A stretch of 64,000 nt of DNA from a bacterium (GTDB lineage Bacteria > Bacillota > Clostridia > Lachnospirales > Lachnospiraceae): the NCBI GenBank assembly GCA_030539495.1, contig JAUNRX010000004.1, positions 8,746 through 72,745 of the forward strand, in the 5' to 3' direction. The notes beneath the pieces are model-generated. The model was not told the origin of the DNA. It saw only the letters and a list, made by a program, of their open reading frames with translations, and did not search any database. This document shows, piece after piece, positions 1 to 17,135 of the stretch (position 1 is the first letter of the stretch; every line of letters begins with the position of its first letter). Made by a program: the position numbers and the translations under genes.

Positions 1-1273
1 CACCACCTGTTGCACCAAAGATGACAGCAGCACCAGAAGACATACCTAATGGGTCATCGAAAGTTTCATCAGGAAGGGATCTAAAGTTAATTCCCTGTTG
101 ATCAATCATTTGTGCAAGTTCTCTTGTAGTAATTGCTATATCGACATCAGGAACACCTGCGGCGTTCTGATTATCTCTACCAATTTCATATTTCTTAGCA
201 GTACAAGGCATGATGCTGACCATTACAATCTTAGCAGGATCAATATTCATTTTCTCAGCATAGTAGGTCTTTGTGATTGCTCCAAACATCTGCTGTGGTG
301 ACTTACAGCTCGAAAGATTTTCTGTCATCTCAGGGAAGTAGTGTTCACAGTAATTAATCCATCCTGGAGAGCAGGAAGTGATAAGTGGAAGCGTTCCATT
401 ATTTTGGATACGATCGATTAACTCATGCGCTTCTTCCATTATTGTCAGATCAGCTGAGAAGTTAGTATCAAATACCTTGTCAAATCCTAGCAGGCGTAGA
501 GCAGCAACCATCTTGCCCTGTACATTTGTTCCAATTGGATAGTCAAAGCATTCTCCAAGTGCAGCACGAACAGCAGGTGCCGTTTGTACAAAAACAATCT
601 TATCAGGATCAGCAATGGCATCAAAGACTTGTTTGGTATAGTTCTTTTCTGCTAATGCACCAGTTGGACAGACAGCAATACATTGCCCACAGGAGACACA
701 GCTTGTTTCGCCTAATCCCATTTCAAAAGCACAGCCAATTTGTGTCTTAAAGCCTCTTTCATTGGCACCAATGACGCCTACGCTTTGTACCTTTTCACAA
801 ACAGCCACACATCTTCTGCATAAGATACACTTGGAATTATCACGATACATATGGGCGGCAGAGTGATCAATTTCAGAATGGATCTGCTCCCCTTTATAAT
901 AGTCTTCATTATCCACTTTTAAATCCTTGCATAGTTTTTGCAGTTCGCAGTCTCTGCTTCGTATACAGGATAGACAGGATTTATTATGATTGGATAATAA
1001 TAATTGCAGCGTTTTCTTTCGGGAGTCTAAGACTTTCTCTGTATTCGTATAGACTTCCATATTTTCAGCGACAGGATAAACACAAGAAGCCACCAGACTT
1101 CTCGCTCCTTTGACTTCTACCACACAAATTCTACAGGCACCAATTTCATTAATGTCCTTAAGATAACAGAGTGTGGGTATATTGATATGGGCCAAATGTG
1201 CTGCTTCTAAAATAGTGGAACCCTTAGGAGCTTCTACGGTCTGCCCATTTATTTTTAAAGTTACAGTCTCCAT
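1..1273 (-). CDS. hydA: [FeFe]-hydrogenase catalytic subunit of an electron-bifurcating (group A3-like) complex; 3' end beyond window start
   Basis: Manual translation from ATG at 1273 (RBS GGAGG): METVTLKINGQTVEAPKGSTILEAA..., [2Fe-2S] and 2x[4Fe-4S] motifs (CILCRRCVAVC, CVSCGQCIAVCP), H-cluster L1 TSCSPGW and L2 MPCTAKKYE; downstream of a NuoF-like gene. Not in the ORF track because it runs off the edge. Confidence 0.95.
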   Translation of the reverse strand, partial: METVTLKINGQTVEAPKGSTILEAAHLAHINIPTLCYLKDINEIGACRICVVEVKGARSLVASCVYPVAENMEVYTNTEKVLDSRKKTLQLLLSNHNKSCLSCIRSRDCELQKLCKDLKVDNEDYYKGEQIHSEIDHSAAHMYRDNSKCILCRRCVAVCEKVQSVGVIGANERGFKTQIGCAFEMGLGETSCVSCGQCIAVCPTGALAEKNYTKQVFDAIADPDKIVFVQTAPAVRAALGECFDYPIGTNVQGKMVAALRLLGFDKVFDTNFSADLTIMEEAHELIDRIQNNGTLPLITSCSPGWINYCEHYFPEMTENLSSCKSPQQMFGAITKTYYAEKMNIDPAKIVMVSIMPCTAKKYEIGRDNQNAAGVPDVDIAITTRELAQMIDQQGINFRSLPDETFDDPLGMSSGAAVIFGATGG

Positions 1274-1283
1274 AATAACCTCC

Positions 1284-3074
1284 TTATTTCTTTATGATGG
1301 CCCCAAATTTACATTTCTCCATACAAGCACCACATTTTAAACATTTCTCAGGATCAATTACATGAGGATGTTTCACTGTGCCGGTAATTGCACCAGCAGG
1401 GCATACCCTAGCGCACATTGTACAGCCTTTACATTTTTCAGGCTGGATTTCATAATGTAGCAATGCCTTGCAGACACCGGCAGGACATTTCTTATCAACC
1501 ACATGTGCAAGATACTCATCTTTGAAATAACGAAGGGTAGATAAAACAGGATTTGGAGCAGTCTGTCCTAATCCACAGAGAGAGTTTTCTTTAATGTAAT
1601 AACAAAGTTCCTCTAACTTATCTAAGTCTTCTAAAGTACCATTTCCTTTTGTGATCTTATCTAGCAGTTCAAGCAGACGTTTGGTTCCGATACGGCAAGG
1701 GGTGCATTTTCCACAAGATTCATCTACAGTAAATTGTAAAAAGAATTTTGCGATATCTACCATGCAGTTATCTTCATCCATTACGATCAGGCCGCCAGAA
1801 CCCATCATGGAGCCAATACTGATCAGATTATCATAGTCAATAGGAATATCAAAATGTTCTGCAGGAATGCATCCACCTGAAGGACCACCGGTCTGTGCTG
1901 CTTTAAATTTCTTACCATGAGGGATGCCGCCACCAATCTCTTCAATGACTTCTCGAAGCGTGGTTCCCATTGGAATTTCTACAAGGCCTGTATTATTAAT
2001 CTTTCCACCAAGAGCAAATACTTTGGTTCCTTTGGATTTTTCGGTTCCCATGGAGGCAAACCATTTTGGGCCATTTAAAATAATTTGAGGAATATTGGCA
2101 TAGGTCTCTACATTATTTAAAATGGTTGGTTCCTTAAATAAGCCTTTTTGTGCTGGAAATGGAGGTCTAGGTCTAGGCTCTCCACGTTTTCCTTCAATGG
2201 AAGTCATAAGAGCAGTCTCTTCTCCACATACAAAAGCACCGGCACCAAGCCGCAGTCCGATATCAAAATCAAAGCCAGAAGAGAAGATATCTTTTCCAAG
2301 TAATCCATATTCTCTTGCCTGATCGATGGCAATCTTAAGTCTCTTTACAGCGATAGGATATTCGGCACGAACATAGATATATCCTTGATTAGCACCGATG
2401 GCATATCCTGCAATGGCCATTGCCTCTAATACAACATGGGGATCACCTTCCAGGACGGAACGATCCATAAATGCTCCGGGATCTCCTTCATCAGCATTAC
2501 AGCAGACATATTTTTGATCGGAATCATTTCCTTTTGCCAATTTCCACTTGATTCCTGTTGGAAATCCACCACCACCACGGCCACGAAGTCCGCTATCAAT
2601 TAGAGTCTGTATTACTTCATCAGGCGTCATGGAAGTAACGACTTTTCCTAAAGCCTCATATCCGCCTGTTCCTATGTATTCTTCTATATTTTCAGGGTTA
2701 ATGACACCACAGTTACGTAGTGCGATACGATGTTGATTTTTGTAGAACTTGGTATCAGATAGAGATTTTACATCCCCACTATCTGTAACCGTTTCGTTAT
2801 ATAAAAGACGTTTTACGACACGGCCTTTTAATAAATGCTCTTCCACGATTTCAGGAATATCCTCTACTTTGACCATGGAGTAAAAAGACGCTTCCGGATA
2901 AACAATCATAATAGGACCTAATGCACATAATCCATGACATCCAGTCTGAACGACGCATATCTCTTTGCTTAGTCCCTGTTTTTCAATCTCTGCTTGTAAT
3001 GCTTTTATGATTTCACCGCTTCCAGAGGAAGTGCATCCGGTTCCACCACAAACTAAGACATGTGAACGATACAT
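1284..3074 (-). CDS. hydB: NuoF-like NADH/FMN-binding subunit of bifurcating hydrogenase
   Basis: GLRGRGGGGFP, CNADEGDPGAFMDR, GAGAFVCGEETAL, ESCGKCTPCRIG motifs, N-terminal thioredoxin-like [2Fe-2S] domain, C-terminal 2x[4Fe-4S]. Confidence 0.95.
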   Translation of the reverse strand: MYRSHVLVCGGTGCTSSGSGEIIKALQAEIEKQGLSKEICVVQTGCHGLCALGPIMIVYPEASFYSMVKVEDIPEIVEEHLLKGRVVKRLLYNETVTDSGDVKSLSDTKFYKNQHRIALRNCGVINPENIEEYIGTGGYEALGKVVTSMTPDEVIQTLIDSGLRGRGGGGFPTGIKWKLAKGNDSDQKYVCCNADEGDPGAFMDRSVLEGDPHVVLEAMAIAGYAIGANQGYIYVRAEYPIAVKRLKIAIDQAREYGLLGKDIFSSGFDFDIGLRLGAGAFVCGEETALMTSIEGKRGEPRPRPPFPAQKGLFKEPTILNNVETYANIPQIILNGPKWFASMGTEKSKGTKVFALGGKINNTGLVEIPMGTTLREVIEEIGGGIPHGKKFKAAQTGGPSGGCIPAEHFDIPIDYDNLISIGSMMGSGGLIVMDEDNCMVDIAKFFLQFTVDESCGKCTPCRIGTKRLLELLDKITKGNGTLEDLDKLEELCYYIKENSLCGLGQTAPNPVLSTLRYFKDEYLAHVVDKKCPAGVCKALLHYEIQPEKCKGCTMCARVCPAGAITGTVKHPHVIDPEKCLKCGACMEKCKFGAIIKK

Positions 3075-3087
3075 GGAAACTCCCCCT

Positions 3088-3462
3088 TTAAGATCCGAGT
3101 ACCTCGGAAATGGTGTATTCTTTTACAATCTGTCCACGAATTAGGTGCTGATCGACTACGACCAGTGCTTTTTCTGGAGTCATCTTTACGTAAGTAACTT
3201 TTTCTTTGCCTGGTTCCATAACTTCGACAATCGGTTCATATTGGCATAGACCAATACATCCAGTCTGTGTCACAGTTACATTATCAAGTCCTTTTTCCAA
3301 AACGGCATCGGAAAGAGTAGTGAGTACAGGCCTAGCGCCGCTCGCAATGCCACAGGTAGCCATACCAACGACAACCCGCGTTCCTGTATCATCTTCTGAT
3401 CTAAGACCAACTTGCCCCTGCATCTTCTCACGAATGGCCCTTAGTTCTTCTAGTGACTTCAT
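3088..3462 (-). CDS. hydD: Thioredoxin-like [2Fe-2S] ferredoxin subunit (HydD/HndB-like)
   Basis: MATCGIASGA and TGCIGLC motifs; position between hydC and hydB. Confidence 0.8.
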   Translation of the reverse strand: MKSLEELRAIREKMQGQVGLRSEDDTGTRVVVGMATCGIASGARPVLTTLSDAVLEKGLDNVTVTQTGCIGLCQYEPIVEVMEPGKEKVTYVKMTPEKALVVVDQHLIRGQIVKEYTISEVLGS

Positions 3463-3487
3463 AGAAAATACCTCCTATAATAATGTG

Positions 3488-4045
3488 TTATAGAATTGCT
3501 CCACCATCTACAGCTATTTTATTTTCAGATAAATATTCTTTAATATATGTAGAAACTTCCTTAGTATTTAATGGGATATCTTTAAGAATTGTTCGAAATG
3601 TCCTTGTATCTAACTCGAAGGAGCGATCATTATAAGTATAGATATAGTCAAAATCAACCGTTAGATTACAAGTAATAAGAGAGTGAATTGTAGAGGTAAT
3701 ATCTCCTAATGGCATTCTATCAATATGTGATAGAACAAAGGAGGCGTCTACTGTAGTCCCTTCCCCTACGGTAGAGCTGATATGAAAAGTTCCCCCAGTC
3801 GACTCGGACTGAAATTTAAAGAAAGGAACACCAAGACCAACTTTTCGTGTGGTTCGAGTTGTAAAGAAAGGATCGACCACAGCTTCTAGTTGTTCATTTG
3901 TCATACCATTACCATTATCTTTGATCTGTATCGTCAATAAATCCATTGGTGTGCTAATTGTTATATGTATTATAACGAGTGATGCACTGGCAGCAATGGA
4001 GTTGTTTGTTATGTCTAATACATTGAGAGATAACTCTGTCATCAT
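3488..4045 (-). CDS. Stand-alone histidine-kinase-like ATPase (HATPase_c) embedded in hyd operon
   Basis: N-box LDITNNSIAA, G1 DNGNGM, F-box DPFFTT, G2 GLGVPF; no sensor or dimerisation/His domain. Confidence 0.8.
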   Translation of the reverse strand: MMTELSLNVLDITNNSIAASASLVIIHITISTPMDLLTIQIKDNGNGMTNEQLEAVVDPFFTTRTTRKVGLGVPFFKFQSESTGGTFHISSTVGEGTTVDASFVLSHIDRMPLGDITSTIHSLITCNLTVDFDYIYTYNDRSFELDTRTFRTILKDIPLNTKEVSTYIKEYLSENKIAVDGGAIL

Positions 4046-4048
4046 AGC

Positions 4049-4543
4049 TTAAGCGTATTTTGCAAGTATTTCGTCAATGTCGTCTACTGTAAGTCGGCCA
4101 TATACATCGTCATTTACAGTAAGAACAGGTGCGAGACCACAAGCACCAATGCAACGGCATGCATCAAGAGAAAACTTACCATCTGGTGTACATTCTCCAC
4201 CTTGAATGCCAAGCTTTTCAGTGAGTTGATTGTAGATATCACCGGAGCCTTTAACATAACAAGCAGTACCTAAGCACACAGATATCTGATATTTTCCTTT
4301 TGGATTAAGGGAAAATTGAGAATAAAAAGTGACAACGCCATAGATTTTCTCTAATGGAATATCCATTTCATTAGAAATAATGGTTTGTACTTCGATAGGA
4401 AGATATCCGTAGATGTCTTGGGCTTGTTGAAGTACTGGCATAAGTGCACCTTTATCATCTTTATAAGCTTCGATGATCTGCATTAATTCGGCTTCTTGTT
4501 CTTTTGTTCCGTTAAATGGAACCGTGGATGTTTTAGAACCCAT
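4049..4543 (-). CDS. hydC: NuoE-like [2Fe-2S] subunit of bifurcating hydrogenase
   Basis: VCLGTAC...CRCIGACGLAPV motif, YGVVTFYSQF. Confidence 0.93.
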   Translation of the reverse strand: MGSKTSTVPFNGTKEQEAELMQIIEAYKDDKGALMPVLQQAQDIYGYLPIEVQTIISNEMDIPLEKIYGVVTFYSQFSLNPKGKYQISVCLGTACYVKGSGDIYNQLTEKLGIQGGECTPDGKFSLDACRCIGACGLAPVLTVNDDVYGRLTVDDIDEILAKYA

Positions 4544-4734
4544 TCGTTTACCTCCTTGATTTAATAATCTATAAACACATGAAAGAAATTTCCTTCATAG
4601 TATTTCGTGTTTGTCCTTGATTTAACATACAATATTATAGCATAGCACCTTGTAAAAATCCACAAGTATATGCACATTTAACAATAAATGGAAATGGCAA
4701 AATATATAAAATTTTCTGTTATGAGATTGAGAAT

Positions 4735-4752
4735 TTGTTAATTATTTAACTA
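4735..4752. promoter_or_regulatory. Putative Rex (NADH/NAD+ sensor) operator
   Basis: TTGTTAATTATTTAACTA, 1 mismatch to clostridial Rex consensus TTGTTAANNNNTTAACAA, in the divergent gap between the two hydrogenase operons. Confidence 0.65.
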
Positions 4753-4911
4753 GATATTAACAGTAGTTACATTTAATTGGAATGTATTGAAAAAAATAGG
4801 GTGTAATGTTATACTTTTTGCATAATGTAAAGGTTTTACAAATACATATTAATACAATAAAGTGTATAAAAATGCAACCCATTATTTTAGAAAAAATGAG
4901 GAGGAGCTGTA

Positions 4912-5262
4912 GTGACTGTTTATCAAGTATGTAAAGCATTAGATGCGAAAGTTGTCTGTGGTGAAACACGTATGGATAAAGATGTTCACAATGCATGTGG
5001 TTCTGATATGTTGAGTGATGTGCTTGCGTTTGTAAAAGACCAGTCTGTATTGTTAACTGGCCTTTGTAACCCCCAGGTAATCCGTACTGCTGAAATGATG
5101 GACATTATATGTATCGTATTTGTACGTGGAAAAGAACCTGACCATGCAATGGTACAATTAGCAAATACACTTGGGATTACATTGTTAACTACTAGTCATA
5201 GAATGTTCAGCGCATGCGGACTCTTATATGAGAAGGGTCTAAGAGGAGGTGCATCTTATTGA
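4912..5262 (+). CDS. DRTGG-domain protein
   Basis: GSDMLSDVLA / VLLTGL / IVFVRGK pattern; GTG start with GGAGG RBS. Confidence 0.8.
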   Translation: MTVYQVCKALDAKVVCGETRMDKDVHNACGSDMLSDVLAFVKDQSVLLTGLCNPQVIRTAEMMDIICIVFVRGKEPDHAMVQLANTLGITLLTTSHRMFSACGLLYEKGLRGGASY

Positions 5263-5684
5263 GTGCCTCTATGCAGCTACATTATGTAGTTTCTTCTGAG
5301 GACTTTACACGGGCAGGCGAGGCATCCAGTGATGTGAAGAGCAAGCTGAAGAAGCTTGGATTTTCACCGGATGTTGTGCGAAGGGTGGCCATCGTGATGT
5401 ATGAAGGTGAGATCAATATGGTAATTCATGCGAATGGCGGCGAGATAGAGGTTGTAATATCTGAGGAAGAAGTAATTATGAAGTTAGAGGACCACGGTCC
5501 AGGAATCGCAGATGTAGAACAGGCCATGCAAGAAGGATTTTCTACAGCACCTGACAATATACGGACATTAGGATTTGGAGCCGGTATGGGGCTTCCTAAT
5601 ATGAAGAAGTATGCGGACGTTATGGAGATACAGACTAAGATTAATGTGGGAACAACAGTACTTATGAAAGTAGCTGTGAGCTAG
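5259..5684 (+). CDS. Anti-sigma-factor-like Ser/Thr kinase (RsbT/SpoIIAB-type HATPase_c)
   Basis: YEGEINMVIHA, DHGPGI, GFST, GAGMGLPNMKK motifs. Confidence 0.85.
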   Translation: MSASMQLHYVVSSEDFTRAGEASSDVKSKLKKLGFSPDVVRRVAIVMYEGEINMVIHANGGEIEVVISEEEVIMKLEDHGPGIADVEQAMQEGFSTAPDNIRTLGFGAGMGLPNMKKYADVMEIQTKINVGTTVLMKVAVS

Positions 5685-5710
5685 ATTATTTTGGTTTGAA
5701 AGGAGAACAT

Positions 5711-6991
5711 ATGGATAAGTTCTATAATTCAGTTCGCCTAGATGCTGATAAGTGTATGGGATGTATTAACTGTATTAAACGGTGCCCAACACAGGCAATC
5801 CGCGTACGTAATGGGAAGGCGGTAATTACAAGGGAATTCTGTATTGATTGTGGAGAATGCATTCGTATATGTCCGCATCATGCAAAGCTTGCTACTTATG
5901 ATAGTATGGATATTCTGAACAAATACAAGTACACAATTGCATTGCCGGCACCAAGCCTGTATGCACAATTTAATAATTTAGATGATATTAATATTATTCT
6001 TACTGCACTTTTGAAGCTGGGATTTGATGAAGTTTATGAGGTGAGTGGTGCAGCAGAGATTGTATCAGAGCTATCTCGAAAATATGTAGCAGAGCATAAG
6101 GACCTATGGCCAATTATCAGTACAGCATGTCCATCGGTGGTACGTCTGATCAGGGTACGTTTTCCAAACCTGATTGAGCATTTACTTCCAATCAGTGCAC
6201 CAGTGGATCTTGCAGCATCCATTGTAAAGAAGAATGTAATGGAAAAGACGAAGCTGCCTCGAAGTGATATTGGCATTATCTTTATTTCACCATGTCCTGC
6301 AAAAGTGACTGCCAAGTATTCGCCTCTTGGAATTGATAAGAGTGATATTGATGCCGTACTTGCAATTAAAGAGGTATATCCGAAGTTACTTCCTCTTATG
6401 AAAGAGGTAAGAAATGATGTAGAGGAGCTATCAATTGCAGGGAAGATCGGTATCTCCTGGGGAAGTACAGGTGGTGAGGCAGCAGGTCTTTTAACGGATA
6501 ACTATCTTGCAGCGGATGGGATTGAGAATGTAATCCGTGTATTAGAAGATATAGAGGATCAGAAGTTTACCAATTTAGAGTTTATTGAATTGAATGCCTG
6601 TAATGGAGGCTGTGTAGGGGGCGTGCTAACTGTTGAGAATCCATTTGTAGCGAAGGTTAAGCTTAAGAGGTTAAGAAAGTATATGCCAGTTGCATGTGTG
6701 CGACTGAATTCAAGACCTCCGGAAAATGCATATTGGAATACAAGCGTTCAATATGAGCCTGTCTTTAAGTTGGGAGAGAACTTGAAGGAAAGCATTATGT
6801 TGGGAGCAGAAGTGGAAGAAATCTTAAGCAGGCTTCCTGGACTTGATTGTGGGTCTTGTGGGGCACCAACGTGTCGTGCATTAGCAGAAGATGTGGTTCG
6901 GGGTGTAGCCAAGGAAAAGGATTGTATCCATATCTTACGAGAGTATATTCATAAGATATCCAATGAAATAAATAGGCTTGACCAAGAATAG
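5711..6991 (+). CDS. Atypical [FeFe]-hydrogenase-fold protein (2x[4Fe-4S] + H-domain + C-terminal FeS domain), probably regulatory
   Basis: CMGCINCIKRCP and CIDCGECIRICP; variant H-cluster motifs STACP, SPCPAK, ELNACNGGCVGG; C-terminal CGSCGAPTC. ATG at 5711 preferred over TTG 5696 (RBS AGGAG). Confidence 0.8.
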   Translation: MDKFYNSVRLDADKCMGCINCIKRCPTQAIRVRNGKAVITREFCIDCGECIRICPHHAKLATYDSMDILNKYKYTIALPAPSLYAQFNNLDDINIILTALLKLGFDEVYEVSGAAEIVSELSRKYVAEHKDLWPIISTACPSVVRLIRVRFPNLIEHLLPISAPVDLAASIVKKNVMEKTKLPRSDIGIIFISPCPAKVTAKYSPLGIDKSDIDAVLAIKEVYPKLLPLMKEVRNDVEELSIAGKIGISWGSTGGEAAGLLTDNYLAADGIENVIRVLEDIEDQKFTNLEFIELNACNGGCVGGVLTVENPFVAKVKLKRLRKYMPVACVRLNSRPPENAYWNTSVQYEPVFKLGENLKESIMLGAEVEEILSRLPGLDCGSCGAPTCRALAEDVVRGVAKEKDCIHILREYIHKISNEINRLDQE

Positions 6992-7002
6992 GGGGAGATA
7001 GG

Positions 7003-7338
7003 TTGACTGTTAAGGAGTTAATTGAGAGTGGTAAGTTTCATAGTATTAATGAACAAGGCGATTGTACCAAAGAAATTACCGTACCTTTTTGTTGTGATTT
7101 ATTAAGCATCGCTATGAGTAAGGCGCCTGCCGGAGCAGCCTGGGTTACTGTTATGGGAAATGTGAATACGATTGCAGTTGCATCACTTACAGAGGTTTCC
7201 GTATTGATCCTTGCACAAGGGATGAAGTTAGATGAGTTTGCTTTAAAGAAAGCAAGGAGTCAGAATGTGATAGTATTAGCTACGGCTATGCCGATTTTCG
7301 AGACTGCTTACTGGATTTATAATCAAATGCATGAATAG
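7003..7338 (+). CDS. DRTGG-like domain protein
   Basis: CCDLLSIAMSKA...WVTVMGNVNTIAVA pattern typical of hydrogenase-associated DRTGG-like proteins. Confidence 0.65.
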   Translation: MTVKELIESGKFHSINEQGDCTKEITVPFCCDLLSIAMSKAPAGAAWVTVMGNVNTIAVASLTEVSVLILAQGMKLDEFALKKARSQNVIVLATAMPIFETAYWIYNQMHE

Positions 7339-8053
7339 ATTATCATACGACTTACATATCCATTCCTGTTTGTCTCCTTGTGCAGATGAGGATATGACAC
7401 CGGCAAATATAGTAGGAATGGCATCTATTAAGGAATTAGATGTAATTGCAGTGACAGATCATAATAGTTGTAGAAATTGCAGAGCAGTAATCGAGTGGGC
7501 AAAACAGTATGATATTATGGCATTACCTGGAATGGAACTGACGACAGAGGAAGAGGTGCATGTATTGTGTTTATTTGAGACTTTGGAGAGTGCATTGCAG
7601 TTTGACCGGTATGTTTATGAAAGGCTAGGCCATATTAGGAACAGTGCCGTTATCTTTGGAGAACAGTATCTGTATAATGAAAAGGATGAAAGGATTGGAG
7701 AAGAAGAGCGCTTGCTCATTCAGAGTACATCCATCCATTTTGATGAAGTCTATGATCTTATGCGGCAGTTTGACGGAGTAATGGTTCCTGCGCATATTGA
7801 TAAGAGTGCAAATAGCTTATTATATAATCTTGGATTTATTCCAGAGGGAAGTAAGTTTCAGTGTGTGGAAATTGCAAATCTACAGAGAAAAAAACAGTTA
7901 TGTGAAGAACAGGAGTACTTACAGGGGATAAGAGTTATTTCAGACTCAGATGCACATTATCTAACAGATATCAATGAACCGAAGAACTGGATAGAAGTTG
8001 AGAAGCCAACCATTTTATCCGTAATTAACTGGTTAAGAAATACTAGGAATTGA
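7331..8053 (+). CDS. PHP-family metal-dependent phosphoesterase
   Basis: DLHIHS, VTDHN, PAHID, SDSDAH metal-binding motifs. Confidence 0.88.
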   Translation: MNRLSYDLHIHSCLSPCADEDMTPANIVGMASIKELDVIAVTDHNSCRNCRAVIEWAKQYDIMALPGMELTTEEEVHVLCLFETLESALQFDRYVYERLGHIRNSAVIFGEQYLYNEKDERIGEEERLLIQSTSIHFDEVYDLMRQFDGVMVPAHIDKSANSLLYNLGFIPEGSKFQCVEIANLQRKKQLCEEQEYLQGIRVISDSDAHYLTDINEPKNWIEVEKPTILSVINWLRNTRN

Positions 8054-8151
8054 CATTTTATATAAATGCTATCGGTGTTAGAATTATTTTATTTGGATCA
8101 TGAATGTGGCTGGTTAATTTAGCTTAGTCAGTCAAATAGGGGGGGATTAAA

Positions 8152-8397
8152 TTGGATATTACAATATGCATCGGAAGTTCCTGTCATTTAAAAGGTTCAC
8201 GGGAAATTGTCAGTGAGCTGCAACGGCTTTTAAAAGAGCATAATCTTCAGGATCAAGTAGAGCTTAATGGATCCTTTTGCATGGGACAATGTGTAAAAGG
8301 AGTTTGTACAAAGATCGATGGAAAGCTATTTTCTTTATCACCGGAGGACACGCAGACATTCTTCGAGAATGAGGTGCTTAGGAGGCTGAATGGATGA
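8152..8397 (+). CDS. Small thioredoxin-like [2Fe-2S] protein (HfsA-like)
   Basis: ICIGSSCHLKG...FCMGQC motif; first gene of hfs-type operon. Confidence 0.8.
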   Translation: MDITICIGSSCHLKGSREIVSELQRLLKEHNLQDQVELNGSFCMGQCVKGVCTKIDGKLFSLSPEDTQTFFENEVLRRLNG

Positions 8398-10127
8398 ATG
8401 TAATCGGCTTCCGAGAAGCTCGCTGTAAGAATTGCTATAAATGTGTTCGTATTTGTGATGTTAAGGCAATCGTTGTAAAAGATCAGCAGGCACAGATCCG
8501 TGATGATCTTTGTATCTTGTGTGGACATTGTCTGGATGCCTGTCCTCAAAATGCTAAGACATTGATCAGTGACCTTGACCGTGTAAAGGAGTTTATACGA
8601 ACAAAGAAGAGAACTGTTATATCGTTAGCACCTTCCTATCTTGGAATTATGAAGTTTGAAAAGATTGGGCAGGTAGTAACGGCGTTAAAGCAACTTGGAT
8701 TTTCTGAAGTAAGGGAAACCTCGGAAGGTGCCGCTTATGTGACAAGGGAGTATGTCAAGCTCTTAAATGAGGGGAAGATGAGAAATATAATAACGACTTG
8801 CTGTCCAAGTGCCAATGACTTGATTGAGATTTATTATCCAAGCCTGACCAAGGATATGGCACCAGTGGTATCTCCTATGGTTGCACATGGAAGGTTGATT
8901 AAAGAACAGCTAGGAGGAGATGTTAAGGTTGTATTCTTAGGTCCCTGCATTGCTAAGAAACGTGAGGCACTTGGGGACGAACGTACCGTAGGTGCCGTGG
9001 ACGCAGTCATTAACTTTACTGAAGTGGAAGAATGGCTGAAGGAAGAGGGAATTGAGATTCCTTCTTTAGGTGAGACAGAGTTTGATAATAAAAATCCAGA
9101 GGTCAACAGGCTGTATCCAATTACAAGTGGCGTATTGTCCTCTGTTGTTGCCTCTTCTTCTAAAGATCATTATCGTAAGTTTTATGTTCATGGATTAAGA
9201 AATTGTATTGAGCTTCTTAAGAGTATGGAAAAGGGAGAGGTAGAAGACTGTTTTATTGAACTGAATGTATGTAATGGTGGCTGTATTAAAGGTCCGGCAG
9301 TAGATACCTCCTATATTTCCCGATTTAAAGTAAAGCTGGATATGGAAGAAACAATTCCTAAAATCCCTGCGAAGGAGACATTTTTTGATCCTGATACCGG
9401 CATTTCCCTTAAGAAGACATTCTTACCTCGAAAGAGTAAGGATCCTATGCCTACGGATGAACAGATTCGTGCCATTTTAAAGAAGATTGGAAAGAGTGAC
9501 CCAAGCCATGAGCTAAATTGTGGTGCATGTGGATATTCTTCTTGTCGAGAAAAGGCCATTGCAGTATTTCAGGGGAAGGCAGAACTTAGTATGTGTATTC
9601 CTTATATGCATGATAAGGCAAGTTCCATGGCAAATGTGGTTATGGATACAACCCCGAATGTTATTATCATGGTGGATTCTGATATGAAGATCGTGGAATA
9701 CAATGCGGCAGCAGAGCGGTATTTTCATTATTCCAAGGAACAGGCATTATCCATGTACCTTTATGAAATCGTAGACCACAGTGATTTTCAATATGTATTA
9801 GATACTAAGTCGAGTATCTTGGGCAAAAAGGTCACTTATAAAGAGTTTGGAGTAACGACACTGCAAAATATCGTATATGTTCCTGATCAAAACAATGTGC
9901 TTGGAATTATGGTAGATATTACAGCAGAAGAGGAAAAAGAATTAAAGGCATATGAAGTGAAAATGGATACCATCGAAATGGCTCAGAAGGTCATTGATAA
10001 ACAGATGATGGTCGCTCAGGAAATCGCAGGATTATTAGGAGAGACTACGGCGGAAACCAAGGTGACATTAACCAAGCTGCGTGATACCATTTTGTACGAT
10101 GGAGAAGAACAGCACGTAGATAAGTAA
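8394..10127 (+). CDS. Putative sensory [FeFe]-hydrogenase with C-terminal PAS domain (HydS/HfsB-like, group C)
   Basis: 2x[4Fe-4S], TTCCPS, GPCIAKKRE, ELNVCNGGC, FeS domain CGACGYSSC, PAS-like region (IIMVDSDMKIVEYNAAAE) and C-terminal QEIAGLLGETTAETK tail. Confidence 0.85.
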   Translation: MNVIGFREARCKNCYKCVRICDVKAIVVKDQQAQIRDDLCILCGHCLDACPQNAKTLISDLDRVKEFIRTKKRTVISLAPSYLGIMKFEKIGQVVTALKQLGFSEVRETSEGAAYVTREYVKLLNEGKMRNIITTCCPSANDLIEIYYPSLTKDMAPVVSPMVAHGRLIKEQLGGDVKVVFLGPCIAKKREALGDERTVGAVDAVINFTEVEEWLKEEGIEIPSLGETEFDNKNPEVNRLYPITSGVLSSVVASSSKDHYRKFYVHGLRNCIELLKSMEKGEVEDCFIELNVCNGGCIKGPAVDTSYISRFKVKLDMEETIPKIPAKETFFDPDTGISLKKTFLPRKSKDPMPTDEQIRAILKKIGKSDPSHELNCGACGYSSCREKAIAVFQGKAELSMCIPYMHDKASSMANVVMDTTPNVIIMVDSDMKIVEYNAAAERYFHYSKEQALSMYLYEIVDHSDFQYVLDTKSSILGKKVTYKEFGVTTLQNIVYVPDQNNVLGIMVDITAEEEKELKAYEVKMDTIEMAQKVIDKQMMVAQEIAGLLGETTAETKVTLTKLRDTILYDGEEQHVDK

Positions 10128-10155
10128 ATTACAGTTGAGAGAGGAATAAGTCGGA

Positions 10156-11328
10156 ATGAGTGTAAATGTTGATATCTCTTATAAAAGCTTAAATAAGCAT
10201 GAGGAAGAGTTATGTGGTGATAAGGTTGAACTGCTTAAGACAGCAGATTCTGATATTATTATTCTTGCAGACGGCATGGGGAGTGGAGTGAAGGCAAATA
10301 TATTAGCAACCTTGACTTCTAAAATCCTTGGGACTATGCTGATTAATGGGGCATCTTTGGAGGATTGTGTGGAAACAATTATTTTAACGCTTCCAGTTTG
10401 TAAAATACGTCAGGTAGCATATTCTACGTTTAGTATTTTACAGATTTATCATTCAGGAGAGGCCTATCTTGTTGAATTTGATAACCCGGGCTGTATCTTT
10501 ATCAGAGAAGGAAAGCTGATTCAAATACCATTTGAAGAACGAGTGATTCATGATAAGAAGATCAGAGAGTATCGTTGCAATGTAAATATAGGAGACTATT
10601 TTCTATTGATGAGTGACGGAGTAGTACATGCAGGAGTCGGAAAATTATTGAATTTTGGATGGTCCTGGGAGCATGTTGCGGAATATGCAGTAAATGCAAC
10701 CAAGACTTGCACTACAGCGGATCGACTGGTTACAGCACTTTCAGATGCCTGTGACGAGCTTTACATGCAGTCTCCGGGAGACGATGCCACAGTGGCAGTT
10801 GCAAAGGTGACCGTTAAGAAAGTAGTAGCACTGCTTACCGGACCTCCCGTTAATCCTGAGGATGACCAAAGGATGATTGAGGAGTTTATGGAGCAGGAAG
10901 GGAAGAAGGTAGTCTGTGGTGGTACGACTGCAAATATCATCTCAAGAGAATTACAGAGAGGAATTACCACTTCATTGGAGTATTTAGATCCAAATGTTCC
11001 GCCAATTGCTCATATTGCGGGAATTGATCTGGTAACAGAAGGGGTTCTGACGCTTACAAAGACTCTTCACTTATTACAGAAATATGCGAATAATGAAGTA
11101 GATGAAGACTTTTTTATTCAGCTGGATCAAAAAAATGGTGCGGCCATGGTTGCCAAGATTATTATCGAGGAGTGCAGTGATTTATATCTTTATGTTGGAC
11201 GTGCTATTAATGTAGCACATCAAAATCCAGAGCTTCCATTTGACCTAAGCATTCGTATGAATTTAGTGCACCAGATTGAGACGGTAGTAAAAAAAATGGG
11301 AAAACAAATTACAATTAAGTATTACTAA
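10156..11328 (+). CDS. PP2C/SpoIIE-family Ser/Thr phosphatase (HfsC-like)
   Basis: ADGMGSG, MSDGVVHAG, GDDATV motifs; follows the PAS hydrogenase. Confidence 0.88.
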   Translation: MSVNVDISYKSLNKHEEELCGDKVELLKTADSDIIILADGMGSGVKANILATLTSKILGTMLINGASLEDCVETIILTLPVCKIRQVAYSTFSILQIYHSGEAYLVEFDNPGCIFIREGKLIQIPFEERVIHDKKIREYRCNVNIGDYFLLMSDGVVHAGVGKLLNFGWSWEHVAEYAVNATKTCTTADRLVTALSDACDELYMQSPGDDATVAVAKVTVKKVVALLTGPPVNPEDDQRMIEEFMEQEGKKVVCGGTTANIISRELQRGITTSLEYLDPNVPPIAHIAGIDLVTEGVLTLTKTLHLLQKYANNEVDEDFFIQLDQKNGAAMVAKIIIEECSDLYLYVGRAINVAHQNPELPFDLSIRMNLVHQIETVVKKMGKQITIKYY

Positions 11329-11341
11329 TGGAGGAAAAGAC

Positions 11342-12799
11342 ATGTTAGAAGAAAATGCAAAGCTAGGTAATATTAAACATGAGGTACTTTATCAAGTAGC
11401 AAAGGCGGCATTCGCAGAGAAACTTGAGGAAGTAAGGGATCGAATTCCATTTGAAATGATTGAAGGACCTCAAGCAAATTTTAGATGTTGTATTTATAGA
11501 GAAAGAGAGATTATTAGACAGAGAGTTCGATTGGCAGAAGGAAAGCCAACAAATGAGAGCTTGGGTGATGAGAATATCATTCAAGTAATCAACTCTGCCT
11601 GTGAAGGCTGTCCAATCACCAGATTTACTGTAACGGATAACTGCCAGAAATGTATTAGTAAGAAGTGTCAGCAGGCATGCAAGTTTGGAGCCATTTCTAT
11701 GACAAAGGATCGTGCTTATATTGATCCTTCCAAATGTAAAGAGTGTGGAAAGTGTTCGGAAGCCTGTCCTTATAATGCAATTGCAGACTTACAGAGACCA
11801 TGTAAAAAGGCTTGTCCAGTGGATGCGATTTCATGGGATGAATATAAGATTATACATATTGATAAAGAAAAGTGCATAACCTGCGGTAAGTGTATTATCA
11901 GCTGTCCATTTGGTGCCATTGGAGATCGCTCTTTTATTGTGGACGTAATTAATCTGATTAATTCAGGAAGACCAGTGTATGCTTGCGTTGCACCAGCAAT
12001 TGAAGGACAGTTTGGCAAGGACGTAATCATTGGAGTTCTTCATGAAGCAATTATGGCGTTAGGGTTTAAAGATATGTACGAAGTAGCCTTAGGTGCTGAC
12101 TTGGTTGCAGAGTCTGAAGCAAAAGAGTGGATGGAAGCATATGAACAAGGAAAGAAGATGACGACATCGTGTTGTCCAGCATTTGTGAATATGATTAAGA
12201 AACATTATCCACAATTAATAGAGAATGTGTCGACTACAGTTTCCCCAATGGCAGCAACGGCGCGTTATATTAAAAATCTTGACCCAGATGCAGTGGTAGT
12301 ATTTATTGGGCCATGCATTGCTAAGAAGGGTGAAGTATTAGATAGTGTAGCAGATACTACTTCAGATTATGCATTAACATTTGAAGAGCTAAATGCAATG
12401 TTCCGCGCAAAGGAAATCGATTTATCAACCTTTAAGGGCGAGCTACAGCAGGGAAGTATCTACGGCAAACGTTTTTCTCAATCTGGCGGGGTAACGGCGG
12501 CAGTTCTTGAGGCATTAAAGGAATTAAATGAGGATACGGATGTTAAAGTTAAGCAGTGTAATGGTGCAGCAGAATGTAAGAAAGGGCTATTATTAATGAA
12601 GATTGGAAGGCTTCCAGAAGACTTTATCGAAGGCATGGCTTGCGAGGGCGGCTGTATGAAAGGTCCTGGTAACTTATCCTGTGATTTGATGACTGCGAAA
12701 AATAGAGAGACATTGCTTGGTGGAGCAGATTCTCGTAGCATTACAGAAAATATCAAACAGCAGAATGCTCAGTTAGTCGAAATGCATCGACACAAATAG
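11342..12799 (+). CDS. Monomeric [FeFe]-hydrogenase (group B, HfsD-like)
   Basis: Multiple ferredoxin motifs; TSCCPAF, GPCIAKKGE, EGMACEGGC H-cluster motifs. Confidence 0.85.
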   Translation: MLEENAKLGNIKHEVLYQVAKAAFAEKLEEVRDRIPFEMIEGPQANFRCCIYREREIIRQRVRLAEGKPTNESLGDENIIQVINSACEGCPITRFTVTDNCQKCISKKCQQACKFGAISMTKDRAYIDPSKCKECGKCSEACPYNAIADLQRPCKKACPVDAISWDEYKIIHIDKEKCITCGKCIISCPFGAIGDRSFIVDVINLINSGRPVYACVAPAIEGQFGKDVIIGVLHEAIMALGFKDMYEVALGADLVAESEAKEWMEAYEQGKKMTTSCCPAFVNMIKKHYPQLIENVSTTVSPMAATARYIKNLDPDAVVVFIGPCIAKKGEVLDSVADTTSDYALTFEELNAMFRAKEIDLSTFKGELQQGSIYGKRFSQSGGVTAAVLEALKELNEDTDVKVKQCNGAAECKKGLLLMKIGRLPEDFIEGMACEGGCMKGPGNLSCDLMTAKNRETLLGGADSRSITENIKQQNAQLVEMHRHK

Positions 12800-12885
12800 A
12801 GTCATCTGTATTAGCCGTATGTTTTTTTGCTTAATTATGGTACACTAGGGGTAAACTGTATCATTCGGGTAAAGGAGATGTATGA

Positions 12886-14388
<1,503 letters not shown>

Positions 14389-14397
14389 GATATTAAG

Positions 14398-14443
14398 AAG
14401 AACCCTCATGTGTTGCTTTTTTTAGCAATACATGAGGGTTCTT
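14398..14443. terminator. Bidirectional intrinsic terminator between glpK and the convergent gene
   Basis: AAGAACCCTCATGTGTTGCT / AGCAATACATGAGGGTTCTT inverted repeat (one G-T pair). Confidence 0.8.
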
Positions 14444-15412
14444 TTAATCATTAACCTTTGAGACACCCCAGATAATGGTGGAGGAGATACCACAAAGAAT
14501 ACCTGCAACAGCATATATGATGCCGGCACTTTCCCAGTGGTCATAGTAAAAGCCAACAATTAAAAAGATTACTGTGGCAATCATTAAGATTACGCTATTG
14601 ACCATGCCGTAAATCCGTTCCACTCTTCGTTGCTGTCGCGTCTTATTGGCATTCTTAAGTAGTGTTTCATAAGGGGCATTTTGACACCCGGAGAATACAA
14701 ATAAAAAGACAGCAATGCTTATAATGAGTAGAAAAGGTACAACAGGAAGGGAACTATGGTCGGTAAAGATGGGTTCAGTTATAAAGATAGAAATTGGAGA
14801 TAGAATACATAAAACGACACCGATAATAGTCAGTACAGTATGCCGATTTTGATGTTGTTTTTGTTCTGTCATTAAATATTGTTTGGTAGGAGAGTCAAGG
14901 CGAATTCCGTGCTCAATAAATTGGTATTCTTTTGTTAAGGAACCGGAGTAGATAAACAGGGCAACCGCACAGGCAACTAATACAAATAAACTAAGATAGG
15001 AGAGCATGCTGTCTCCATCAGAGTCAGTCAGTACGGTTAACACTTTGTCTTCTGCAAGTCCATTAAATAGGCAGACGAATGTCGCACCTAAAATACATAA
15101 GATAACGCCAATCGAAATTAAAATACTAGTTTTCTTTTTTACGGTTATGTAGGATTTCACCTGTTCAAGACTGATACTAGGTGTGGAGGTTTCTTCAACA
15201 AGAGAGACTCCAAGTTCTTGCAGCTGTTTGTCAATATTACCAAATTCGGCAATCACTTTAGCCACAGCTTCATTCTCGGAGTAGCCTTGATTCTTTAGTT
15301 CTTTATATTTATGCATCATATGTTTTGTAATGTTTTCTTTTGTTTGCAATACGTTCTCTGTCTTTGGAAGGTGATGAAACACACTTTCTACATAGGCTTG
15401 AATCGTTTCCAT
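14444..15412 (-). CDS. Membrane protein with N-terminal 'permease prefix'-type soluble domain
   Basis: METIQAYVESVF...HKYKELKNQGYSENEAVAKVIAEFGNI pattern followed by about 6 hydrophobic segments; start at 15412 or GTG 15424. Confidence 0.7.
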   Translation of the reverse strand: METIQAYVESVFHHLPKTENVLQTKENITKHMMHKYKELKNQGYSENEAVAKVIAEFGNIDKQLQELGVSLVEETSTPSISLEQVKSYITVKKKTSILISIGVILCILGATFVCLFNGLAEDKVLTVLTDSDGDSMLSYLSLFVLVACAVALFIYSGSLTKEYQFIEHGIRLDSPTKQYLMTEQKQHQNRHTVLTIIGVVLCILSPISIFITEPIFTDHSSLPVVPFLLIISIAVFLFVFSGCQNAPYETLLKNANKTRQQRRVERIYGMVNSVILMIATVIFLIVGFYYDHWESAGIIYAVAGILCGISSTIIWGVSKVND

Positions 15413-15740
15413 ACTTATACACACTCCTTAATAAGATGGTTCATAAATTGTTATTGTTCAGTTCTCTAGTTGTATTACAAGTAAAGTATACAACAAAAAC
15501 AAATGGTTGCAAATGTAAATAGCTACGTTCAATAACAGATTTATTAGGATTGGTAAAGTACTAGTTTGTAAAAAAGTGGTTATATTCATAAAAAGGACAG
15601 AGAAATTAATTTCCTTAAGTGAAAAACTGTCATAAGCCTTGTAATAACAGAGTTTTATGGTAAAATGGAAATATTCATTAACAAGTAAAAGATCGAATAT
15701 TCGTGGATTACTTGAATTTAGATAGGTAAGGAGATTTATC

Positions 15741-17135
15741 ATGGAATTAGTAACGATACGCGACCTATATCGTAATAAAGAAACTTATGTTGGAAAGACT
15801 ATCTCCATCGGAGGTTGGGTAAGAAGTAATAGAGATCAAAAAGCATTTGGCTTTATCGTAGTAAACGATGGCAGCTTCTTTGAGACTTTACAAGTAGTTT
15901 ATAGTGCAGATAAACTTGAAAACTTCGCTGAAATTGCAAAATTAAACATTGGATCTGCAGTAGTTGTAAAAGGACAATTAGTTGCAACTCCTAATGCAAA
16001 ACAACCATTTGAAATTCAAGCAGAAGAAGTATTAGTAGAAGGTATGTCTACAAGTGATTACCCACTACAAAAGAAACGTCATACATTAGAATACTTACGT
16101 ACAATCACTCATTTACGTCCTAGAACAAATACGTTCCAAGCAGTATTCAGAGTACGTTCTTTAATCGCTTATGCAATTCATCAATATTTCCAAGAAAGAA
16201 ACTTTGTATATGTTCATACTCCATTAATCACAGGTAGTGACTGTGAAGGTGCTGGTGAAATGTTCAGAGTAACAACTCTTGATCTTAATAATGTACCAAA
16301 AACAGAAGAAGGTGCCGTTGATGTTAAACAAGACTTCTTCGGTAAAGAAACAAACCTTACAGTAAGTGGTCAGTTAAATGGTGAAACATATGCTTGTGCA
16401 TTCCGTAACATCTATACATTCGGACCTACATTTAGAGCAGAAAACTCTAATACAACTCGTCATGCAGCAGAATTCTGGATGATCGAGCCTGAAATCGCAT
16501 TTGCTGATTTACAAGATGACATGATTTTAGCAGAGGGAATGCTTAAATATGTAATTAAGTACGTACTTGAAAATGCTCCTGAAGAAATGAACTTCTTCAA
16601 CCAATTCGTTGACAAAGGATTACTTGAACGTCTTAATAACGTAGCTGCAGCTGATTTCGGACGTGTTACTTACACTGAAGCAATCGAAATCCTTGAAAAA
16701 GTAAACGATCGTTTCGATTACAAAGTAAGCTGGGGATGTGACCTTCAAACAGAACATGAACGTTACTTAACAGAAGAAGTATTCAAGAAACCTGTTTTCG
16801 TAACAGATTACCCTAAAGATATTAAAGCATTCTACATGAAGATGAATGATGATAATAAAACAGTTGCTGCAATGGATTTATTAGTTCCTGGAATTGGTGA
16901 AATCATCGGCGGTAGCCAAAGAGAAGATGATTACGACAAGTTAGTTGCTCGTATGAATGAATTAGGATTAAAAGAAGAAGATTACGATTTCTATCTTGAT
17001 CTTCGTAAATACGGTTCCGTTCGCCATGCTGGTTTCGGTCTTGGTTTCGAACGTTGTGTAATGTACCTTACTGGTATGGGTAACATCAGAGACGTTATTC
17101 CATTCCCTCGTACTGTTAACAACTGCGAACTTTAA
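15741..17135 (+). CDS. asnS: Asparagine--tRNA ligase
   Basis: OB-fold N-terminus, [42 protein letters not shown]; highly expressed codon usage. Confidence 0.97.

Follow-up and report, generated by a model that had tools for sequence, protein, structure and literature searches.

A putative hydrogen island of three adjoining gene modules in a Lachnospiraceae genome

The locus described here bears on the sensing of H2 and on the switching between hydrogen, acetate and ethanol in fermenting gut and rumen bacteria. The locus is a cluster of [FeFe] hydrogenase genes in a member of the Lachnospiraceae, at positions 1-12799 of a 64,000-nucleotide stretch of DNA (the window) on contig C222 of an assembly of 3.96 Mb, 257 contigs and 91% completeness. 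Genes were called from a listing of open reading frames (ORFs) and from Pfam scans, which covered the 18 proteins encoded in 1-17135. Judged by its gene content, the cluster is a set of three known gene modules adjoining each other. Such "hydrogen islands" are found repeatedly in this branch of the family, and all parts of this one belong to kinds described before. Parts of this picture may already be contained in Figures S4 and S5 of PMC11406978 and in the gene-context figures of the HydS papers. A literature search directed mostly at journals readable without subscription found no description of a hydrogenase island in Lachnospiraceae, nor of DRTGG proteins together with hydrogenase sensors.

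Described relatives and overall organization

The closest described relative of the first putative sensor in the cluster is TamHydS of Thermoanaerobacter mathranii, and the likeness is drawn from the published description, motifs and gene context. As described there, TamHydS has an H-domain preceded by two N-terminal [4Fe-4S] motifs and followed by a C-terminal Cx2Cx4Cx16C motif. It lacks a PAS domain, its proton-relay cysteine is replaced (by alanine in the window) and its Met353 exchanged for serine, and its gene neighbours are a HATPase-only gene and those of a bifurcating group A hydrogenase (PMC8163306). All of these features are found in the window. At the Met497 position, which the same paper calls poorly conserved, TamHydS has leucine and the window protein asparagine (PMC8163306). 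The gene contexts also differ, in that the cassette of the window is divergent from the hyd operon and the AraC-type regulator that neighbours TamHydS was not seen here, while the DRTGG and PHP genes present in the window are not mentioned where the TamHydS neighbourhood is described. A 2026 paper on this type enzyme calls for the identification of its interaction partners (PMC13104023).

Sensor-type genes next to bifurcating ones have also been described in Hydrogenedentota, where group C1 and C3 genes lie beside group A3 (BfuABC) genes (PMC11406978). As in the window, a HATPase_C domain is associated there with the PAS-less sensor class that adjoins bifurcating hydrogenases, although in Hydrogenedentota it is fused to the sensor (PMC11406978). 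These bacteria belong to another phylum, the account of them mentions no group B enzyme, DRTGG or PHP genes, and in their group C1 the H-cluster binding motifs, intact here, were hardly found (PMC11406978). The bifurcating enzyme itself has its described counterpart in the electron-bifurcating HydABCD of Acetobacterium woodii, whose NuoF-like HydB, NuoE-like HydC and small HydD all have equivalents in the window (PDB 7q4v, PMC6288185). The window adds a HATPase-only gene, HK1, between hydC and hydD, and bifurcation is predicted here.

For the second putative sensor the closest described system is that of Ruminococcus albus 7, in which the plasmid pRUMAL01 carries the genes rex-adhE-phosphotransferase-Fd-Fd-HydS-PP2C-HydA2 (Fd, ferredoxin; PP2C is annotated as a SpoIIE phosphatase and HydA2 as a 4Fe-4S dicluster protein). 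Four genes of the window are collinear with the last four of this series, with identities of 40% (ferredoxin gene), 39% (HydS, over 98% of the length of the window protein), 44% (PP2C) and 44% (HydA2). The PP2C proteins are alike over their full length, including an unnamed C-terminal domain, and both sensors have two adjacent cysteines in the first H-cluster motif. The unit of the window differs in having no rex, adhE or phosphotransferase gene and one ferredoxin gene in place of two, and in directly following a group D cassette. The hfsABCD genes of Thermoanaerobacterium, compared by gene order alone, show the same succession of [2Fe-2S] protein, PAS hydrogenase, PP2C and hydrogenase of about 480 residues. 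For R. albus grown together with an H2 consumer, a 111-fold reduction of the HydS/HydA2/adhE cluster is reported (PMC6776011). In Thermoanaerobacterium, the deletion of hfsB is reported to shift ethanol yield, with hfsC and hfsD being required (PMC5707799, PMC11837493).

The 15 entries of the gene listing for the cluster are five minus-strand genes, a 368-base AT-rich intergenic gap and nine plus-strand genes. The Fe_hyd_lg_C domain occurs in the products of hydA (261 bits), of the group D gene (111 bits), of the group C gene (193 bits) and of the group B gene (222 bits), and on reading of the sequences the four H-cluster cysteines are kept in all of them. The genome has six H-domain loci, and the two outside the cluster, on other contigs, encode a group A enzyme of 465 residues and a group-B-like protein of 449 residues. 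Because four of the six fall within about 14.5 kb, the cluster is far from chance (about 1e-6 by an arithmetic estimate over 3.96 Mb). The maturase genes hydE, hydG and hydF form one block on contig C227; in a profile search of the genome contigs they scored above the curated cut-offs there only, and none did so on the contig of the window.

An earlier note, made from the sequence, had read the cluster as one complete H2- and redox-sensing phosphorylation circuit tuning the bifurcating enzyme. Its inventory was borne out by Pfam and hhalign, which find four H-domain genes, two HATPase genes, two DRTGG genes, a PHP gene and a PP2C gene in 1-12799. The note had also correctly guessed the four classes (bifurcating group A, atypical or group D, PAS-type group C, and group B) and the absence of hydEFG from the window, but it had passed over hydD (3088..3462, minus strand) and the gene of a [2Fe-2S] protein of 81 residues (8152..8397, plus strand). 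Its proposal of a circuit is supported in part, as to conserved neighbourhoods. The surveys below place only the group D sensor with the bifurcating operon, the PAS sensor and PP2C following group B.

It seems rather probable that the cluster is a three-module island in which each sensory hydrogenase controls its own catalytic partner. What the analysis establishes are the identities of the genes, their motifs, the conservation of their order and the occurrence of natural fusions; H2 binding, phosphorylation, targets and co-transcription are inferred.

Conservation of the modules across Lachnospiraceae

For the survey of the group D cassette, 200 further genomes of the family were sampled, each from a different genus. 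At every locus a stretch of up to 20 kb was fetched and its ORFs were labelled by BLASTP against the window proteins; since several stretches end at contig ends, the counts are lower bounds. A group D orthologue (48-78% identity) is present in 48 of the 200 genomes. The exact order DRT1-HK2-group D-DRT2-PHP is kept in 42 of these 48 loci, the bifurcating operon lies inside the fetched stretch in 40, HK1 is found in 41, and hydC and DRT1 stand back to back, as in the window, in 35. A group C gene falls inside the fetched stretch in only 8/48.

The second survey took the 80 closest group C loci (58-93% identity) in a collection of species-representative genomes, labelled in the same way. The upstream [2Fe-2S] gene is present in 79/80, an adjacent PP2C gene in 77/80 and the group B gene in 68/80. 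Within 10 kb, 34 of the 80 also have genes of the group D cassette or of the bifurcating operon, and these fall into three arrangements. The window-like order, with PHP followed by the [2Fe-2S] gene, accounts for six, the nearest being two metagenome-assembled genomes (MAGs) with identities of 93% and 85%. Anaerocolumna xylanovorans DSM 12503 and A. jejuensis DSM 15929 are among the 13 loci with a convergent order. In another 14, Lacrimispora indolis and Clostridium sp. Marseille-P2415 among them, the arrangement is tail-to-tail and the group B gene points towards the hydA end. In 8/80 loci every one of the four H-domain types falls within the fetched stretch.

Searched with one query per sensor, 34 genomes of the family sample have both sensors, 14 have group D only and eight have group C only. 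Neither sensor module needs the other, since each occurs alone in these 14 and eight genomes. About 19 of the 44 group-C-like genes of the sample have a group-B-like gene directly downstream; some 12 others, of lower identity to that of the window, adjoin hydA without a group B gene. The resulting rule is simple: the bifurcating enzyme is accompanied by the PAS-less sensor cassette, and the group B enzyme by the PAS sensor with PP2C. The conserved neighbourhoods of hydrogenase, kinase-like and phosphatase-like genes argue for functional coupling.

Two sensor-effector pairs, one of group D with the bifurcating enzyme and one of group C and PP2C with the group B enzyme, are favoured over one integrated circuit. 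The slow sensor-type hydrogenases would read the H2 level or the redox state at the H-cluster, and each would control its own catalytic partner. The group D protein, the DRTGG proteins and the SpoIIAB-like ATPase would together form a complex; this complex would adjust the bifurcating enzyme or its operon, and the PHP enzyme would reset it. The PAS sensor would steer the PP2C phosphatase, which would set how much group B hydrogenase is made or how active it is, and probably also the formation of alcohol, by analogy with R. albus and Thermoanaerobacterium. Because both sensor types and their conserved companions sit together in these cultured relatives, Anaerocolumna and Lacrimispora would be convenient for finding the signal receivers.

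Two side observations were made among the 80 group C loci. In 12 of them the hfs-type unit adjoins a second, more distant HydC/HydB/HydA-like set, whose HydB is less than 65% identical to that of the window and which in several loci has its own small [2Fe-2S] gene (L098, L108, L112, L117, L124, L134 and L135, the last from Lachnoclostridium phytofermentans, are among them). Two loci labelled as a Bacteroides thetaiotaomicron MAG (L119) and as Prevotella sp. (L167) carry a complete, Lachnospiraceae-like hfs-type unit with 59-60% identity to that of the window; the probable cause is that these records were misbinned or mislabelled, the alternative being gene transfer.

Gene products of the modules

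The group D cassette, here called module 2, occupies the plus strand from DRT1 to the PHP gene. Its central gene (5711..6991, with an alternative TTG start at 5696) encodes a putative sensory hydrogenase of 426 residues, in which Pfam finds two N-terminal [4Fe-4S] motifs, the H-domain and a C-terminal FeS domain, and no PAS domain. The C-terminal Cx2Cx4Cx16C motif reads CGSCGAPTC-x16-C in the translation. The H-cluster motifs are STACP, SPCPAK and ELNACNGGC, and the same substitutions, which replace the proton-relay cysteine and both methionines, are found in 66/66 orthologues. By these motifs the protein is one that fits the definition of group D (M2e) as published with the type enzyme TamHydS (PMC8163306). 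None of the curated NCBIfam models covers it or the group C protein.

The flanking genes of the cassette encode small proteins. DRT1 (4912..5262, 116 residues) has a Pfam DRTGG domain (31.2 bits). DRT2 (7003..7338, 111 residues) reaches 20.2 bits with the same model, under the cut-off of 25.2, and is taken as a paralogue of DRT1 because hhalign aligns the two with 98% probability. Residues D32, S35, T49, N53 and N55 of DRT2 are invariant among 57 sequences, and the positions that DRT1 and DRT2 have in common, Asp-x-Leu-Ser and Thr...Asn, are fully or nearly fully conserved. HK2 (5259..5684, 141 residues) is a SpoIIAB-like GHKL ATPase or serine-kinase-like protein, with a HATPase_c_2 domain and, in the Pfam scan, no histidine-kinase phosphotransfer domain. 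Among solved structures it comes closest to SpoIIAB, the anti-sigma F factor and serine kinase (6e-9, residues 26-138), and 67 orthologues conserve the N, G1 and G2 boxes. The last gene (7331..8053) encodes a PHP-family metal-dependent phosphoesterase of 240 residues (Pfam PHP, 29.9 bits), whose metal-binding motifs HxH, DH and DSDAH are conserved.

The best evidence that the group D protein acts in a complex with its neighbours comes from natural fusions. Among the best 150 of 7553 relatives in a library clustered at 50% identity, 12 unusually long ones were scanned. Five of these are predicted to have a C-terminal DRTGG domain, at the place where group C proteins have PAS, two an N-terminal DRTGG domain and one an N-terminal HATPase_c_2 domain; four have no extra domain. 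The HATPase_C fusion reported for this class in Hydrogenedentota (PMC11406978) is independent of these. In one genome of the survey (L073, G156:C10:520149-540148) the cassette lacks DRT2 and PHP although the contig runs on at both sides; both genes are therefore dispensable in at least one genus.

The hfs/HydS-type unit, module 3, lies on the plus strand and begins with the 81-residue protein already mentioned, a thioredoxin-like [2Fe-2S] protein (2Fe-2S_thioredx, 30 bits) with the pattern Cx4C...Cx3C. The next gene (8394..10127) encodes a HydS/HfsB-like putative sensory hydrogenase of 577 residues with H-domain, FeS and PAS domains. Its C-terminal cluster motif CGACGYSSC-x16-C (Cx2Cx4Cx16C), the PAS domain after it (residues 416-468/511) and the GPC in place of MPC are the sequence features by which it is group C (M2f, PAS-type; the phosphatase-linked C3 of HydDB). 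The H-cluster motifs are TTCCP, GPCIAKK and ELNVCNGGC, so that Met353 is replaced by glycine and Met497 by asparagine, with Cys299 being kept (TTCCP). The two adjacent cysteines of the first motif, seen also in R. albus HydS, are present in 77/87 group C relatives; TmHydS is described as having alanine at the Cys299 position (PMC10055695). The unit ends with a group B (B1, "monomeric") hydrogenase resembling HfsD and R. albus HydA2 (11342..12799), which passes the cut-off of NCBIfam TIGR04105 (613.8 bits against 450). Its motifs are TSCCPAF, GPCIAKK and EGMACEGGC, the first of which is found in 66/67 relatives, the remaining one having TSCCPSF; the first motif of subgroup B2 is given as TSCCCP in published accounts, unlike the TSCCP seen here.

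Between these two hydrogenase genes lies that of an HfsC-like PP2C phosphatase of the SpoIIE family (10156..11328; SpoIIE 49 bits, above the Pfam cut-off, residues 35-218), with conserved metal-binding aspartate motifs. The C-terminal domain of about 165 residues (10828-11325, the C-terminal 166 residues) is conserved as well, and has no Pfam match even at E <= 10. That it might be DRTGG-like was considered and rejected, as hhalign gives this a probability of 0.1-0.2%. A predicted model of the domain (predicted local distance difference test, pLDDT, 88.6; predicted template modelling score, pTM, 0.84) retrieved nothing with Foldseek at E <= 0.001. A wide structure search aligned it with E. coli NuoG 375-532 (Z 9.7, root-mean-square deviation 3.4, 119 residues aligned), FhcB (Z 9.1) and the Rossmann-like domains of formate dehydrogenase and nitrate reductase (Z 6-8). 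These matches of the model are barely over the usual background and provide a lead, not an assignment. Look-alikes of the domain in the Atlas are stand-alone hypothetical proteins of about 150 residues from several phyla.

Module 1 is read from the minus strand and has the order hydC-HK1-hydD-hydB-hydA. The hydA gene (2..1273) is cut by the edge of the window, which contains the N-terminal 424 residues; the full gene, which extends about 470 bases beyond the left edge, encodes 581 residues. HydA is the H-cluster subunit of an NADH-dependent bifurcating-type hydrogenase (group A3/A6) by its score with NCBIfam NF040763 (group A6, NADH-dependent), where the full protein reaches 903.7 bits against a cut-off of 765. 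The motifs TSCSPGW, MPCTAKKYE and EIMGCPGGC represent L1 to L3. The earlier note called this protein a canonical HydA; its first motif has serine in place of the second cysteine of the textbook TSCCP. We take this position to be a ligand of the [4Fe-4S] part of the H-cluster. The same variant is found in 54/67 orthologues and in HydA1 of A. woodii, which HydA matches over its full length at 1e-212 (PDB 7q4v).

According to Pfam the same operon contains the genes of a NuoF-like flavin mononucleotide (FMN)/NADH subunit with Fe-S domains (hydB, 1284..3074; Complex1_51K 154.9 bits, NADH_4Fe-4S 122 bits) and of a NuoE-like [2Fe-2S] subunit (hydC, 4049..4543; 2Fe-2S_thioredx 180 bits). Module 1 is thereby predicted to make an NADH- and ferredoxin-linked bifurcating-type [FeFe] hydrogenase. 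The HydB orthologues of related loci are 69-97% identical. The hydD product, a small thioredoxin-like protein with weak 2Fe-2S ferredoxin matches, has only three cysteines at the [2Fe-2S] motif positions, and the place of its gene between HK1 and hydB is conserved in related loci. HK1 (3488..4045, 185 residues) consists of a HATPase_c domain only (48.6 bits, residues 9-102); its ATP-binding boxes are kept, and Pfam finds no histidine-kinase phosphotransfer domain in it.

Modules 1 and 2 diverge from an AT-rich promoter region (4544..4911, GC 0.33). It includes a Rex-box-like palindrome, TTGTTAATTATTTAACTA, at 4735-4752, with one mismatch to the search pattern and the sole such match in 64 kb. 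The pattern was a consensus that we take to be that of the Rex box, and the background was 39 matches in 886 kb of sequence unmatched in AT content. The rex gene sits on another contig (C103). Control of this promoter by Rex was set aside as a side note in view of the conservation of the box, given below. Modules 2 and 3 are separated by 98 bases, between the PHP and [2Fe-2S] genes, in which there is no terminator-like site and no stable hairpin (z = +1.1); positions 8076-8084 hold TG-n-TAGAAT, which resembles an extended -10 element. The hfs-type unit may for these reasons be transcribed by read-through from the group D cassette or from a start of its own.

Weighing of the alternatives

Several observations weigh against the proposed control of each catalytic enzyme by its own sensor. 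The surveyed genomes are kin, and the counts are therefore not independent. The fused forms of the group D protein may be gene-calling artefacts, and in one of them (P0137) the DRTGG score is under the Pfam cut-off. HK2 reaches 58.9 bits with the NCBIfam SpoIIAB model, below its cut-off of 135. Among solved structures the PHP protein comes closest, with weak E-values (0.02-0.5), to nucleotide phosphoesterases and a 5'-3' exoribonuclease, and these matches do not favour a protein-phosphatase role. No STAS-domain protein was found by Pfam among the 18 scanned proteins at E <= 0.001. Of 47 orthologous intergenic regions, only 14 have a Rex-like box similar to that of the window. For TamHydS it is reported that H2 does not reduce the C-terminal cluster, and the partners of the enzyme are still called unknown in that account (PMC13104023).

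The last report also fits an alternative in which the "sensors" are working subunits or alternative catalytic modules that dock on the NuoEF-like core (HydBC) or on the group B enzyme, with the ATPase, DRTGG and PHP proteins serving assembly or maturation. TamHydS and TmHydS are both described as turning over H2, if slowly (PMC8163306, PMC10055695), and the group C3 protein is treated as the "T subunit" of some BfuABC types (PMC11406978). The four H-cluster cysteines retained by both window proteins, and the proton-relay cysteine retained by most group C relatives, are likewise in its favour. Yet the group C protein has a PAS domain and a PP2C gene next to its own, and the group D protein has lost the proton-relay cysteine and both methionines throughout its relatives. 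The deletion of hfsB is reported to raise hydrogenase activity and adhE transcripts, which points to regulation (PMC5707799). Purified HydABC(D) is described as consisting of HydA, B and C, plus D in A. woodii, only (PMC6288185). On balance this alternative is unlikely, though the most probable of those weighed here.

A little more doubtful is the possibility that the adjacency of the modules is meaningless, a by-product of rearrangements that gather genes of hydrogen metabolism, the modules being independent or having distant targets. It would account for the three relative orders and orientations among close relatives and for the many genomes in which 20-440 kb separate the hfs-type unit from the group D/bifurcating locus or the two are on different contigs. 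Proximity is nevertheless kept in at least three arrangements and in the 34 of 80 loci, which is judged more than neutral shuffling would keep, and within each module the order is nearly fixed.

The integrated phosphorylation circuit is slightly less probable again. In it HK2 and PP2C would share a target, such as the DRTGG proteins, and both sensory hydrogenases would feed one switch tuning the bifurcating enzyme. In partner-switching systems, kinases of the SpoIIAB type and PP2C phosphatases of the SpoIIE/RsbU type are the classic antagonists. With a small SpoIIAB-like GHKL protein and a SpoIIE-family PP2C the window recalls the SpoIIAB/SpoIIAA/SpoIIE partner switching of Bacillus (PDB 1til, 1th8, 1l0o), and in the window and five other loci the two lie in one co-directional string without a terminator-like site. 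The 34 genomes with both sensors, against 14 and eight with one only, also agree with a joint circuit. These same 14 and eight genomes, however, tell against a single complete circuit, as do the modules standing apart or being otherwise oriented in most loci and the group D cassette having a phosphoesterase of its own. By Pfam the cluster has no STAS antagonist and no sigma factor, its DRTGG and PHP proteins are without counterpart in the Bacillus system, and the unnamed domain of PP2C is unrelated to DRTGG.

In the form given by the earlier note, the circuit is not supported. Both HATPase proteins are without a histidine phosphotransfer domain, and the Pfam scan of the cluster found no sigma factor, response regulator or output domain. 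The nearest matches of the PHP protein, weak as they are, are not protein phosphatases. In the published work on R. albus and Thermoanaerobacterium the PAS sensor is linked to a ferredoxin-type hydrogenase and adhE, and not to the bifurcating enzyme (PMC6776011, PMC5707799, PMC11837493). Least probable, and very much so, is a new phospho-switch confined to the window-type string of nine genes, in which kinase and PP2C under the two sensors would converge on the DRTGG proteins in place of STAS and set the split of electrons between the bifurcating and a ferredoxin-only hydrogenase.

The genes on either side of the cluster complete the picture of the locus. The gene of a glycerol kinase, glpK (12886-14388), directly follows the group B hydrogenase gene, and it is found likewise 3' of the group B gene in three loci with the gene order of the window (L093, L094 and L127). 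To the left of the window (C222:5971-8048), two tandem ORFs (6685-7230 and 7503-8048) adjoin the end of hydA and encode identical products of 181 residues, which have a rubredoxin-like CxxC...CxxC N-terminus and appear rubrerythrin-like. Upstream of them lies an ORF of 134 residues whose product looks Fur/PerR-like.

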